A DNA stretch of 64,000 nucleotides from Clostridia bacterium. Lineage in GTDB: Bacteria; Bacillota; Clostridia; TANB77; CAG-508. Shown here piece by piece: positions 31,937 through 35,452 of this stretch (position 1 is its first letter; every line of letters starts with the position of its first letter). The position numbers were made by a program, and so were the translations under genes. Location: positions 1,620 to 65,619 of the forward strand of contig JAFQQR010000044.1 of the NCBI GenBank assembly GCA_017410505.1, read 5' to 3'. The notes under the pieces are model-generated. The model made no database searches. It saw only the letters and a list, made by a program, of their open reading frames with translations, and was not told the DNA's origin.

Positions 31937-34252
31937 TTATCTAGATGGTTCTTCTTGTTTTCTTTCATTTAACACATCTACAATTAATTCAACTACTTCT
32001 TCTGGAGTATTACTTGGCAACTGTATATAATCACCACATTTTGTCACAGTCAGATACCCCCTTGCACCTGGTACTCCAAATAACCATTTTGACAAATTAT
32101 TTACAGGTATCTTTTTCCCATCTTTACTAATTCCTGACATATCTGTTTTAATTCTAGTTGAAAAACACCTTCCGTCTGCCTGGATTTTAGATTTTATTGT
32201 TGCTCTATTTTCATTATTCCAGTCGATTCCTATTCTTTTTAAATATTTATCTGTAAGCCAAAAATATTTTGGTGTTGGATATATGTTTAATTTTGATATT
32301 GTATTTTCAAATTCGTTTCTTTGTTCTTCTGGAATAAATTCTTCTATAGCCTTTATTGTTTCTTCTTTATATGCCCCTGTATTTAAACATTTCATATATA
32401 TTGTTGTAAAATCTTTTATATCAATATCAAAAGATGTTGTTAAAGTTTTCATTATTTTTTCAAAACTACCATAAATACTTACTGAATATTTTTCCATTTG
32501 TTCATCTACATCTAGATTCTCTATAATCATTTTCTTTGTCAACTCTTTAATTTCTGGATTTAAATTTGAAAATAATTCATGTGTGTTAGAATAATTTTCT
32601 ATTAATTCAAACATCTCTTCATGTCTTTTTTTGTCTTCATTATCTCTTTTTCCTTTTCTCTCTGCTAATGCATTTAATATATTATAAAATTCTTTGGTTG
32701 TTTTATTCTGGTCCTTTTCTTCAACAGTACTTAATAAACCAAAATCTTTTTCTTTTAACATTGTATTATGTATATCCTCTACTGTTATTCCTTTTATTCC
32801 AAACTTTTTAAATTTTTCCAATTCTTTATTTTCTAAATTTTTAATATTAAATCCATTTTCTCTTATTATTTCTAATATTTCATCATCTTTTATATTATTT
32901 TGTCTTGCTATATCAATAATTGAATTTAAATTAGATAAACTAACTTTTGAAGTGCTATTTCTTAATAAATCTAACAATTTTTTTGAAGATTTTTCATCAT
33001 AATTAAATTGATAGTAAATTATTGTTTCTATTGATATATTTTCTGTATTTAATATAATATCTCTAATTTCATTTTCATCTAAAATCTCTTTTGGTATACC
33101 ATTAGCAAATGATTTTGCTTCACGTATTGGAAATACAGATCTTCCTAAATCATTTGATTTTTCTGTATTTAAATTTTGTAAAATCTTTTTTAATGGTTCC
33201 GGATTATTATAAAATTGTTCTAGATATTTTAAATATTCATTTATTTTTTCTTTATCTAAATATTTTCTTTTGAATCCTTCTAGCACTTGATCTAAATCGC
33301 TATCATACAATTTATCCGGTTTAATTTTCATAATATCAAAGTTTGGGTAATACCTTCTTTGTATTTCTGTATCTAAAGTAGATTGTATAAAGTTTGTAGC
33401 TAATTCTGGTTTTTTTTCAAATATTTGCTCTAATATGTTTGAAGGCATATTAGAGCCATTTATATTTTCATAACTCGATATAAAATTTTCAATATCATCA
33501 ATATTAATCTCTCCTGTATTCATTGCTTCTTCAATATTTTTAGATTGTGGTTTTTCAAATGCCATTTTCTCTAAAAATTCTTTTACTGTTTCATTTTCTT
33601 CTATTTCATCTAGTCCCAATTTTATATGATATATTTTTTTTACATCTTCATCTAATAAATATAATATGTAATTATTTTTAGAAAAAGCTCCTTTAATTTG
33701 ACTATTTAAATCTTCTATACTTTCTGTTTTTATCCTTTCACAAGAACACCATATTATATGATCATCAGTTTCTGTATAATCCTTATCTTCTTTACTGTAA
33801 GTACCGTAAGTATATATTAGATATGGCTCTTCATCTTTTTTATATGTAGATTCTGCACGAACTGCAACATAATAGTCTTGTATATTTATTTCTTTTTCTT
33901 GTTCTTCTATCACAAAATTATGTATATTATATTCAAATATTAATTCTTCTGTCATTTTTCTTAAGTCGTCATTTGACTCTTCTGGTTTTCTTATTTTAGT
34001 TGTATTTTCTGATGATTTTATATAAGAAGTATAATTATAGGTATAAGTTCCATCTGAATTTTTTTGTTCCATTTCTAGATTTCCATATTTTTTACATATT
34101 ACTGTATAAGTTAAACCTCTTCTCATTCCGTCGTTACTTTCTCCAGTACTTTCTTTATATGAATAAGAACCTATTTGTCTTTCTCCAATTAATTCTTTGT
34201 TAATTGGTGTTTTTGTTATTATTTTCATTTTTACTAATTTTCCTTTCCTCAA
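31937..34252 (-). CDS. Large hypothetical protein (771 aa, or 763 aa from the ATG at 34228). No recognisable domain. Third gene of the operon containing the Csx3-like gene.
   Basis: ORF-track ORF. It starts 13-37 nt after the Csx3-like stop. I recognise no catalytic motif. The C-terminus reads KWLFGVPGARGYLTVTKCGDYIQLP. Confidence 0.7.
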   Translation of the reverse strand: MRKGKLVKMKIITKTPINKELIGERQIGSYSYKESTGESNDGMRRGLTYTVICKKYGNLEMEQKNSDGTYTYNYTSYIKSSENTTKIRKPEESNDDLRKMTEELIFEYNIHNFVIEEQEKEINIQDYYVAVRAESTYKKDEEPYLIYTYGTYSKEDKDYTETDDHIIWCSCERIKTESIEDLNSQIKGAFSKNNYILYLLDEDVKKIYHIKLGLDEIEENETVKEFLEKMAFEKPQSKNIEEAMNTGEINIDDIENFISSYENINGSNMPSNILEQIFEKKPELATNFIQSTLDTEIQRRYYPNFDIMKIKPDKLYDSDLDQVLEGFKRKYLDKEKINEYLKYLEQFYNNPEPLKKILQNLNTEKSNDLGRSVFPIREAKSFANGIPKEILDENEIRDIILNTENISIETIIYYQFNYDEKSSKKLLDLLRNSTSKVSLSNLNSIIDIARQNNIKDDEILEIIRENGFNIKNLENKELEKFKKFGIKGITVEDIHNTMLKEKDFGLLSTVEEKDQNKTTKEFYNILNALAERKGKRDNEDKKRHEEMFELIENYSNTHELFSNLNPEIKELTKKMIIENLDVDEQMEKYSVSIYGSFEKIMKTLTTSFDIDIKDFTTIYMKCLNTGAYKEETIKAIEEFIPEEQRNEFENTISKLNIYPTPKYFWLTDKYLKRIGIDWNNENRATIKSKIQADGRCFSTRIKTDMSGISKDGKKIPVNNLSKWLFGVPGARGYLTVTKCGDYIQLPSNTPEEVVELIVDVLNERKQEEPSR

Positions 34253-34264
34253 AAGTAATGTTTT

Positions 34265-34948
34265 TTATTTATCTTCAATTGACATTTCTTTAGAAGCAGA
34301 TAATTTTTCTTTTATTTCTTCTTTTCCTAAAGGGTCTTTTGTTAAATCTCCTAATGATTTTTTTCTACTATGAGTTATTGAACATGTATATCCTACACCT
34401 GGTTGAAATAATGATACACTGCTGTTTGTATGAGCATATGCTTCTGCTACAGCTACTGTTAAATAATTTGGTCCTCTTCCTGATATATATACTGCTTTTC
34501 CTTGCTCTACTTCTGGAACAACAATTTTTGATAAATTATTTTCATCATAAATGTCACAATCCATAGAAAATTCTACTAGAACTGCATCTCCTTTTTGAGT
34601 TGTCTTAAAACTTACTTCTCCTTCTGCATTTTCTTTTCCATGACTTAATTGTGGAATTTCAATATCTTTTCCAATCTGTGGTACATAAACACTAACTGGA
34701 CTTGGATGTACTGTATGTGTTAAAGCAGATACAAGCCAAGCTGGTGCAGCTCCTGTTATTCTTACAGGATTTCCTTCTGCTGATAAATTTTTTACTTCTT
34801 TAACAGCTTTTTGTAAATTTTCTTGATCCCAAACTAAAGATTTGACTATTTTTCCGTTTGGTAATTCTTGTTCTTTTGCCTCCATTCCTATTTTTTCTCC
34901 TAATTTTGCAATATCTATTGTGTTAACTTCTTGATTTTTTTCTTCCAT
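34265..34948 (-). CDS. Tandem Csx3/Crn3-like protein (two copies of the CRISPR-associated Csx3 ring-nuclease fold in one chain)
   Basis: Domain 2 (FKTTQKGDAVLVEFSMD..IVVPEVEQGKAVYISGRGPNYLTVAVAEAYAHTNSSVSLFQPGVGYTCSITHS) aligns by eye with the A. fulgidus Csx3 pattern as I recall it (..IEIPSVDTRKGVVISGRGPIWL..LAHKYHHT.FVAVYDPRLGAVVVQSHS). Domain 1 (NPVRITGAAPAWLVSALTHTVHPSPVSVYVPQIGKDIEIPQLSH) repeats the pattern. RBS GGAGG. Confidence 0.65.
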   Translation of the reverse strand: MEEKNQEVNTIDIAKLGEKIGMEAKEQELPNGKIVKSLVWDQENLQKAVKEVKNLSAEGNPVRITGAAPAWLVSALTHTVHPSPVSVYVPQIGKDIEIPQLSHGKENAEGEVSFKTTQKGDAVLVEFSMDCDIYDENNLSKIVVPEVEQGKAVYISGRGPNYLTVAVAEAYAHTNSSVSLFQPGVGYTCSITHSRKKSLGDLTKDPLGKEEIKEKLSASKEMSIEDK

Positions 34949-34969
34949 TTTCTTTTCCTCCTAAATATA

Positions 34970-35452
34970 TTATTTTTTATTTATATTTCGATTCAACACG
35001 TAATCAACAAAAGTCGTTAATATATCAGTTACTTGTTTTGAATATGATAAAAACTTATAATTTAATGAATCACAGAGATAACTTAAATTTATTAAATCTT
35101 TATCAAAGTTTAAATCAATAATAATTATTTCATCTTTATTTTCAAATCTTTTGCTATTAATTAATTCTTCAACACTGAAATTTAATAGATCTTTTCCCTC
35201 TATATTTTCATTAAAAATCTTACTATCTTTTTTTACTATAATATCCGCAATATTATAGTCTACATCAATAATTCTGTAGAAAAAATATTCAGCATTTAAC
35301 CTTTTTTTCATATAAGTAATTAATTTACTAACAATAAATTTCTTTTCTTGATATAAGATTTTCTTAATATTCTCAAGTGCCTTTTTATCTTGTTCTAGTT
35401 TTAATAAAGTTATGGACTCCATTTCTAAAACTTTTTGATATGATGGTATCAT
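34970..35452 (-). CDS. Hypothetical protein (160 aa), first gene of the Csx3-like operon
   Basis: ORF-track ORF. RBS AAAGGAG. 21-nt gap to the next gene. No family recognised. Confidence 0.6.
   Translation of the reverse strand: MIPSYQKVLEMESITLLKLEQDKKALENIKKILYQEKKFIVSKLITYMKKRLNAEYFFYRIIDVDYNIADIIVKKDSKIFNENIEGKDLLNFSVEELINSKRFENKDEIIIIDLNFDKDLINLSYLCDSLNYKFLSYSKQVTDILTTFVDYVLNRNINKK

Follow-up and report, generated by a model that had tools for sequence, protein, structure and literature searches.

A tandem Csx3 protein beside a LysR-type regulator, outside CRISPR loci of gut Clostridia: a candidate oligoadenylate-binding half-enzyme

What does a Csx3-like protein do far from any CRISPR system? 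To our knowledge, the only role known for Csx3, also named Crn3, is that of a homodimeric ring nuclease by which type III CRISPR signalling is reset. The question is raised by a three-gene operon on the minus strand of a 64-kb stretch of DNA from a Clostridia bacterium (contig JAFQQR010000044.1; "the window" denotes this whole stretch of 64,000 nucleotides, nt), the middle gene of which encodes a 227-residue protein resembling two copies of Csx3. We tentatively favour the view that the module to which this gene belongs is an oligoadenylate-binding half-enzyme or sensor, gated by a LysR-type regulator, which would process its ligand in partnership and not as a stand-alone ring nuclease.

The middle protein is indeed a tandem, or two-domain, Csx3. 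It matches Pfam PF09620 (Cas_csx3) in two stretches (E 4.6e-13; 49.3 bits, with a gathering threshold of 21) and the PADLOC Csx3 model (3.4e-20), and scores 53.2 bits on the Crn3 equivalog TIGR02579, under its cut-off of 55.4. By plain sequence comparison, the PDB match to Csx3 of Archaeoglobus fulgidus (AfCsx3) is limited to the C-terminal half (phmmer to 6yud, 1e-7); profile alignment recovers each half separately, and aligns the two halves with each other at a probability of 95.7% (hhalign, family profiles).

34265..34948, minus strand: tandem Csx3 protein (227 residues), recognised with Pfam, NCBIfam, PADLOC, PDB, hhalign and Foldseek
34634..34861, minus strand: N-terminal Csx3 half (about residues 30-105), hhalign to AfCsx3 93.6%, E 2e-7
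34334..34630, minus strand: C-terminal Csx3 half (about residues 107-205), hhalign to AfCsx3 98.1%, E 8e-14

The fold was compared in three dimensions on the AlphaFold model of an orthologue, P0009, standing in for the window protein (77% identical core; predicted local distance difference test, pLDDT, 88.6). Foldseek aligns this model to AfCsx3 (3WZG) with E 4.6e-7, a template modelling (TM) score of 0.87 on the target and a root-mean-square deviation of 1.3 A, so that the two Csx3 copies of the original prediction are upheld by Pfam, PADLOC, the PDB, hhalign of each half and the structure of an orthologue. About 129 cluster representatives of the protein are found at 60-97% identity. One further relative, P0111 (177 residues, on a 656-nt contig), fuses an XRE-type helix-turn-helix to the C-terminal Csx3 half only and may be either an assembly chimera or a genuine half-Csx3 regulator.

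Whether such a protein can act as Crn3 does depends on a handful of residues. The active site of AfCsx3 combines the "D69 face" of one dimer with the "H60 face" of the next in a stack of dimers. Activity depends strictly on H60 and on D69 and to a large degree on R71 and H80, and H57, H60 and H80 have been described as absolutely conserved; as the site is built between neighbouring dimers of a stack, H60A and D69A, each of them dead alone, are active again once mixed. Alignment of the family profile to AfCsx3 (hhalign; frequencies across 113 family members) gives the following correspondence.

AfCsx3 S44-G45-R46-G47-P48: N half T65-G-A-A-P69; C half S156-G-R-G-P160
AfCsx3 H57: N half H78; C half E169
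AfCsx3 H60: N half H81; C half A172
AfCsx3 H61: N half P82; C half H173
AfCsx3 D69: N half V89; C half Q182
AfCsx3 R71: N half Q91; C half G184
AfCsx3 H80: N half not aligned (possibly H103); C half H193

Neither half retains the essential D69 and R71 of Crn3. The His dyad (H78/H81) is confined to the N half, and the SGRGP ligand loop and the H80 equivalent to the C half. Each pseudo-dimer holds one partial set of the His triad, compared with a full set in each Crn3 protomer, and of the loop that contacts cyclic tetra-adenylate (cA4) in AfCsx3, S44-G45-R46, the C half has S156-G157-R158 and the N half T-G-A, which amounts to half of the symmetric contacts. This pattern is near-invariant across the 113 family sequences, with Q182 in 111 of 111 and G184 in 110 of 111 members, and is common to an outgroup at 36-39% identity. 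Judged by these residues, the tandem Csx3 of the window is under strong constraint and predicted to be unable, alone, to use the Crn3 mechanism; since D69 and R71 are absent from both halves, the ring-nuclease role that the original prediction offered for the middle protein is unlikely for the 227-residue protein by itself. As a candidate half-enzyme, it keeps the SGRGP loop and a metal- and His-bearing face (H78, H81, H193, E169/H173) and has lost both essential residues of the opposite, D69/R71 face. On its own, it would most likely bind an oligonucleotide rich in adenylate (cA4, or a cyclic or linear oligoadenylate related to it) without Crn3-type cleavage, and serve as a sensor, buffer or adaptor.

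If the protein is not a ring nuclease of its own, is it nevertheless part of a CRISPR system? No CRISPR array was found in the window, nor in the 613 kb of 38 related loci, and the window's annotated open reading frames (ORFs), which are housekeeping genes (AIM24, DUF3841, Ham1, VTT, M23, TopA, RecQ, AspRS, MgsA, Dus, RodA and others), include no cas or cyclase gene. The middle gene thus lies far from cas genes and arrays in the window, as first proposed, and the same holds family-wide. CRISPR linkage was not seen for distant tandem-Csx3 relatives either. The conserved genetic context of the protein is a different one, and consists of its regulator and of p160, the product of the first gene of the operon.

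34970..35452, minus strand: p160, a 160-residue protein of a new family, directly upstream of the tandem Csx3 gene (homologue clusters, gene order, AlphaFold 2 model)
35620..36516, minus strand: LysR-type transcriptional regulator (298 residues), with NCBIfam LysR-family matches down to 9.5e-45

The conserved unit is LysR, p160 and tandem Csx3, in this order, and it occurs in about 20 species of uncultured gut and oral Clostridia. In long-contig neighbourhoods with four unrelated outer flanks, a LysR gene, a gene for a protein of about 160 residues and the tandem Csx3 gene follow one another on one strand, and the third gene of the window's operon, encoding p771, is absent. Among 15 GTDB species representatives, all of them uncultured gut or oral Clostridia (e.g., Clostridium sp. 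CAG:389), the p160 gene lies directly upstream of the Csx3 gene in 13 of the 14 informative loci, with LysR upstream in most; the gene that follows Csx3 varies by species and encodes a P-type ATPase, Bax1-I, LPG synthase, aminotransferase, MYG1 or an unknown protein. Two elements of the original prediction have to be revised accordingly. The trio of p160, Csx3 and p771 is not a conserved unit, p771 being absent from the module in some 20 other species by comparison of gene neighbourhoods, and the LysR gene, taken earlier as an outside boundary, belongs to the module, since it keeps the same position and strand in most related loci. Between the window and locus L025, Csx3 is 75% and p160 66% identical, and four syntenic housekeeping genes are 56-87% identical; conservation of the module on a par with its syntenic housekeeping genes argues for chromosomal, vertical inheritance. 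A phage or plasmid origin of the tandem Csx3 was considered and rejected, there being no tblastn match in 50,697 phage or 72,556 plasmid records, and pattern-seeded scans of IMG/VR, which are of limited sensitivity, returned no relative of Csx3, p771, p160 or the 2H head described below.

This context bears on two explanations that start from CRISPR. According to the first, the protein is an ordinary Crn3-type ring nuclease or cA4 buffer that serves, in trans, a type III system elsewhere in the genome, its neighbours being incidental. The Csx3 family is typically type III-associated, published work shows that ring nucleases sometimes occur in effector-less loci and may act in trans, and AAA-Csx3 is itself a listed accessory family, C3a67, the PADLOC model of which spans both halves of the window protein (1.8e-14). 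Nonetheless, D69 and R71 are missing from both halves in essentially all 113 family sequences, the TIGR02579 score falls short of the Crn3 equivalog cut-off, and there is no cas gene or array within +/-10 kb of about 25 distinct loci, distant relatives included. Furthermore, the linkage to p160 and LysR stays tight across species with different flanks, which argues that the neighbours are not incidental, and we regard an accessory of this kind as unlikely. The second explanation, that the gene is a decaying, non-functional relic of a lost CRISPR locus, would fit the lost catalytic residues and the absence of CRISPR nearby, but has next to no probability: the ORFs are intact in more than 100 clusters at 60-97% identity with near-invariant motifs, the promoter, operator and ribosome-binding site (RBS) are conserved, and so, equally, is the partner gene p160. 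Purifying selection across species effectively refutes it.

The constant partner, p160, has 160 homologous clusters, all of about 160 residues and none with a Pfam domain. Its AlphaFold 2 model (pLDDT 88.4; predicted TM score 0.80) consists of a helical hairpin and a small alpha/beta domain, for which Foldseek finds no match in the PDB (best E 1.1) or BFVD (best E 0.31); by this model, p160 is predicted to adopt a new fold. Profile searches of Pfam, NCBIfam, PADLOC, PHROGs and PDB sequences gave no match. Conserved acidic residues (D63, D70, D107/E108, D113, D117 and D128) might point to metal or nucleotide chemistry, which is speculation on our part. In most species, but not in the window, an inverted repeat, TTATTCAG-N4-TTGAATAA, abuts the p160 RBS in the 5' untranslated region (L012 at about 9470-9495, L016, L021, L022 and L030), possibly as a translational or attenuation element. 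A MYG1-family exonuclease gene (302 residues), together with a companion of about 210-228 residues, is found inside or beside the module in four species (L024 7000-9300, L030 10998-12780, and also L019 and L020); in L024, the MYG1 gene sits between a truncated and a full copy of p160.

How might the module be controlled? The region between the LysR gene and p160 holds a terminator, a dyad and a promoter-like site.

35596..35640, minus strand: intrinsic terminator hairpin overlapping the LysR stop codon and followed by a U-run (-17.1 kcal/mol, z -5.86)
35577..35593, minus strand: perfect dyad TATAAG-N5-CTTATA, containing T-N11-A, a candidate LysR operator (from the sequence)
35527..35555, minus strand: sigma-70-type promoter-like site TTTACT-17-TATAAT (consensus scan, 10/12 matches)

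The centre of the dyad lies about 65 nt ahead of the predicted start of transcription. LysR-type recognition sites typically sit near -65, and given this textbook position, LysR very probably controls the p160-Csx3 operon through the dyad. In a 12-species alignment of the region upstream of p160, ATAAG...T.AT, 20 nt, AATTTTAC, 17-18 nt and TA.AAT recur at fixed spacing, with AATTTTAC and TA.AAT invariant, and the dyad block is kept in three loci of the 12 species where the LysR gene is not adjacent. LysR orthologues carrying Pfam HTH_1 and LysR_substrate domains hold the same position and strand in most related loci. The window's own copy is 84% identical to that of L034 and 39-44% identical to other module regulators (L001/L007/L012), which are 68-78% identical to one another; despite this divergence, p160 and Csx3 of the window are 51-80% identical to those of other species, and the LysR of the window's clade could reflect non-orthologous replacement or fast divergence. 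In the mechanism we propose, the regulator would gate, via the dyad at about -65, an operon of p160 and a single-chain, pseudo-dimeric Csx3.

A half-enzyme calls for a second half, and a candidate is encoded next door. In most species, a 480-505-residue protein with a P-loop head and a tandem Csx3 of its own, the architecture of AAA-Csx3 (C3a67), is found immediately upstream of LysR (gap of 3-15 nt). Its N half matches the window-type N half (hhalign 97.4%, E 1.5e-11) and has an invariant Y-D-I-R in register with Y68-D69-P70-R71 of AfCsx3, with Lys at both His positions; its C half keeps only SGR.P. The two co-encoded pseudo-dimers would thus carry complementary half-sites, the D69/R71 pair in the paralogue and the His dyad in the window-type protein, and in most species catalysis could be supplied by stacking of the latter on the adjacent P-loop-tandem-Csx3 paralogue, which keeps D69/R71 and has no His dyad. 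The P-loop domain itself yields weak generic matches only, with no specific kinase assignment, and in distant relatives (the P0116 group) the same P-loop head is joined to a window-type core. The paralogue is absent from the 64-kb window. In three species it is split into overlapping ORFs of 92 and about 410 residues (L016/L017 6993-8487, L019 7977-9441), which could be due to a frameshift, a sequencing error or a programmed event.

An alternative source of catalysis would be a swappable enzymatic head on the Csx3 protein itself. About half of the orthologues are extended at the N terminus by a segment that lies between p160 and the Csx3 core, and at least 11 unrelated head types occur on cores that are at least 65% identical. 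The commonest (21 clusters) has two HxT/S motifs, H38-x-T40 and H93-x-T95, which are invariant or nearly so, and in the P0009 model it is matched by Foldseek to the 2H phosphoesterase domain of CNPase (probability 1.0, E 7e-4, target TM 0.40-0.45). A sequence profile of this head finds nothing in the PDB, its 2H likeness being recovered by structure only, and eight other heads have no recognisable domain. The window protein is headless and starts 10 residues before the conserved core. In L027, a stand-alone 153-residue gene for a 2H-like head lies between LysR and p160 (1916-2377), so that this head occurs both free-standing and fused.

The heads suggest another reading, in which the module belongs to a housekeeping pathway for RNA ends or oligoadenylates: the pseudo-dimer would recognise A-rich RNA 3' ends or short oligoadenylates, and the P-loop and 2H heads would heal or degrade the ends. 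P-loop and 2H domains provide the two end-healing chemistries of tRNA repair enzymes, which the heads of the module would resemble by analogy. The first description of AfCsx3 was as a Mn-dependent deadenylating exoribonuclease, and the protein binds an RNA tetranucleotide; this binding and the original "deadenylase" activity speak for the pathway, as do the MYG1 exonuclease genes in or next to the module in four species and its chromosomal, vertical inheritance with housekeeping-level conservation. Yet the P-loop domain has weak generic matches only, most heads are unrecognisable, RNA-processing genes are not consistently linked, and a conserved core with hypervariable heads is seen more typically in conflict systems. 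We consider this pathway rather unlikely.

The remaining candidate partner in the window is p771, encoded by the third gene.

31937..34228, minus strand: p771, a multi-module protein of 763 residues from the ATG at 34228 (homologue counts, gene context)
31949..32206, minus strand: C-terminal module of p771, about 85 residues, with the signature GKxIxVNNLSKWLFGVPG (profile matches)
31885..31936, minus strand: operon-end terminator hairpin and U-run (RNA fold -16 kcal/mol, z -5.25)

The anatomy of the operon agrees with the original prediction of three packed minus-strand genes, each with an RBS, between two terminators, as judged by ORFs, RBSs and RNA folds, and both terminator hairpins are strong. 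The ORFs are 34970-35452 (160 residues), 34265-34948 (227 residues) and 31937-34252 (771 residues from a TTG), preceded by AAAGGAG-N6-ATG, AGGAGG-N8-ATG and GAGGAAAGGA, respectively. For the third gene, GAGGAAAGGA is positioned for the ATG at 34228 and not for the TTG at 34252; hence the real p771 product has 763 residues, the length of a 100%-identical NCBI protein, P0121, from a "Clostridia bacterium" metagenome-assembled genome. The intergenic gaps are 21 nt between p160 and Csx3 and 37 nt between Csx3 and this ATG. None of 200 shuffled sequences folds as well as the terminator hairpin at 35596-35640.

p771 has 12 homologues, and 89 representatives among 1.84 billion proteins, and matches nothing in Pfam, NCBIfam, PADLOC, PHROGs or the PDB, by sequence or by profile; like p160, it is one of the flanking proteins for which the original prediction saw no recognisable match, a view that the searches of these databases confirm. 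Pfam searches of ten remote relatives yield a weak KH domain only, in proteins that share just the N-terminal 60 or so residues. The GKxIxVNNLSKWLFGVPG module (profile positions of about 675-760) also exists as stand-alone proteins of about 120 residues, none with a Pfam match. By hhalign, p771, p160, the 2H head and the halves of Csx3 show no cryptic homology to one another, every probability being below 1%.

p771 follows Csx3 only in the window's clade (L034/L035), as LysR-p160-Csx3-p771, with p771 diverged to 60%. Its usual context is a triplet without Csx3, encoding proteins of 461, 270 and 769 residues, the 2H-domain protein being first. One homologue, 49% identical, closes an operon within an integrative element that has two serine recombinases, CHAP, a sigma-70 region-4 protein and ParA/ParB; among the other products of this operon are an AAA ATPase and a DHH oligoribonuclease, NrnA-like and split. 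The triplet is also found at a chromosomal site, where the 461-residue gene is split, and 1.5 kb downstream of Csx3 in L016. Over its first 146 or so residues, the 461-residue protein is 56-69% identical to the 2H head that Csx3 orthologues carry as a fusion, and with this head in common, the two gene sets evidently exchange modules. DHH/DHHA1 motifs seen by eye in the C-terminal part of the 461-residue protein were dropped, as Pfam, NCBIfam and the PDB do not support them. The cargo operon of L013 (1866-12310), in a serine-recombinase element, is rich in nucleotide phosphoesterases; its ten genes, in the order AAA ATPase, three unknowns, a 194-residue protein, DHH, NrnA-C-like, 2H-head 461-residue protein, 270 residues and 769 residues, could be an uncharacterised defence or anti-defence set.

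Might p160, Csx3 and p771 then form a self-contained defence or counter-defence system, with Csx3 as the sensor of a cyclic oligonucleotide and p771 as effector? The genes are co-transcribable, their adjacency is kept in the window's clade even though p771 has diverged to 60%, p771 relatives travel with nucleotide phosphoesterases (a 2H head and a split NrnA-like DHH protein) in the cargo of an element with serine recombinases, CHAP and ParA/ParB, and L016 has the p771 triplet 1.5 kb downstream of Csx3. We find this decidedly unlikely, as p771 is absent from the module in about 20 other species, in which unrelated housekeeping genes follow Csx3, and its constant partners are the 461- and 270-residue proteins, not Csx3. 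Moreover, p160 and p771 match none of the known anti-phage defence profiles of PADLOC-DB (0 families), there are no phage, plasmid or viral-contig homologues, and conservation of the module is housekeeping-like and not arms-race-like. Gene order rules out p771 as a conserved partner and indicates that it is a lineage-specific recruit from another gene set, not a defining part of the system.

Returning to the half-enzyme, the window's lineage, with neither paralogue nor head, has instead recruited p771 from a triplet whose first member bears the same 2H head. A more elaborate proposal would be a CRISPR-independent module for oligoadenylate signalling or quenching, with its active site split between two Csx3 paralogues that stack on the ligand, LysR-gated, p160-assisted and head-diversified, in which the His-face half of the window's lineage works with p771; taken as a whole, this is rather unlikely. 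Several observations weigh against a half-enzyme that works in partnership. Compared directly with AfCsx3 by profile, the N half of the paralogue gives no significant match (0.6%), and the register of its D and R residues is therefore transitive. Hetero-stacking cannot be obligatory, since the window, L007/L026, L025 and L027 have no paralogue nearby. The 2H fold match has a modest TM score (0.40-0.45), with no Pfam or PDB sequence match, and no producer of cA4, be it Cas10 or another cyclase, was found within +/-10 kb of any locus. As for regulation, the dyad partly overlaps the 3' coding end of LysR in most species, which may inflate its conservation, and the window LysR is only about 42% identical to the other module regulators.

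Three further features of the window were recorded outside the operon. A 48-nt tandem repeat at 7766-8162 (8.3 copies, 88% match), within a plus-strand ORF (7319-8197), encodes a 16-residue repeat rich in Cys, Asp and Lys (KEDKCECFKDDKKDDY); it was the sole item flagged by a CRISPR-like scan and was rejected as an array, being clearly a coding repeat. On the minus strand, 58081-59148 encodes a 355-residue protein with a type I restriction HSDR_N, PD-(D/E)XK-like domain, which stands alone, no methylase or specificity subunit having been noticed nearby. Finally, a 32-nt direct repeat (2.2 copies, ATTTTAACACAA-rich) at 39511-39579 adjoins tRNA-Cys and tRNA-Gly genes (39690-39929).

Collectively, these findings place the Csx3 fold, fixed as a fused, asymmetric pseudo-dimer, outside CRISPR loci and very probably under a LysR regulator, paired with a protein of unrecognised fold, p160, in abundant human-gut Clostridia. 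The complementary residue loss in two adjacent paralogues would be a natural counterpart of the mixing of H60A and D69A mutants, and the split-site pattern offers a testable hypothesis for the role of AAA-Csx3 proteins. Should the module bind cyclic oligoadenylates in genomes without Cas10, it would imply a non-CRISPR source or use of such signals in gut bacteria. The searchable literature describes neither complementary catalytic residues split between two co-encoded Csx3 paralogues nor an arrangement of LysR, p160 and a degenerate tandem Csx3.

Parts of the module have counterparts among known systems. A LysR-family regulator and a T-N11-A dyad some 65 nt ahead of the predicted start are shared with LysR-regulated operons, but the regulator is co-directional and upstream instead of divergent, and the window copy belongs to a divergent lineage with its own terminator. 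The commonest head of the orthologues shares with 2H phosphoesterases (CNPase, LigT/CPDase) the two HxT/S motifs and a Foldseek match to CNPase; unlike these enzymes, it matches no Pfam 2H family, and it is absent from the window protein. AAA-Csx3 (C3a67, e.g., Caur_2269) and Csx3-AAA (cluster 35) are listed type III accessory proteins of unknown function. The window protein is similar to the former in that its residues 39-196 align to positions 218-368 of the 382 in the C3a67 model (PADLOC PDLC01059, 1.8e-14), and a P-loop-tandem-Csx3 paralogue is encoded two genes upstream in most related species; it differs in having no P-loop head, and its family is not CRISPR-linked. Crn3/Csx3 of A. fulgidus (AF_1864; PDB 3WZG, 6YUD) is of the same fold and family, PF09620. 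The SGRGP loop, the His dyad and H80 are each kept somewhere in the window protein, and its two-domain unit mimics the AfCsx3 homodimer. Unlike that homodimer, however, it consists of two fused, non-identical domains, with D69/R71 in neither and the His dyad in one, and unlike Crn3, it falls below the TIGR02579 cut-off and has, in place of a type III neighbourhood, the fixed partners p160 and LysR.

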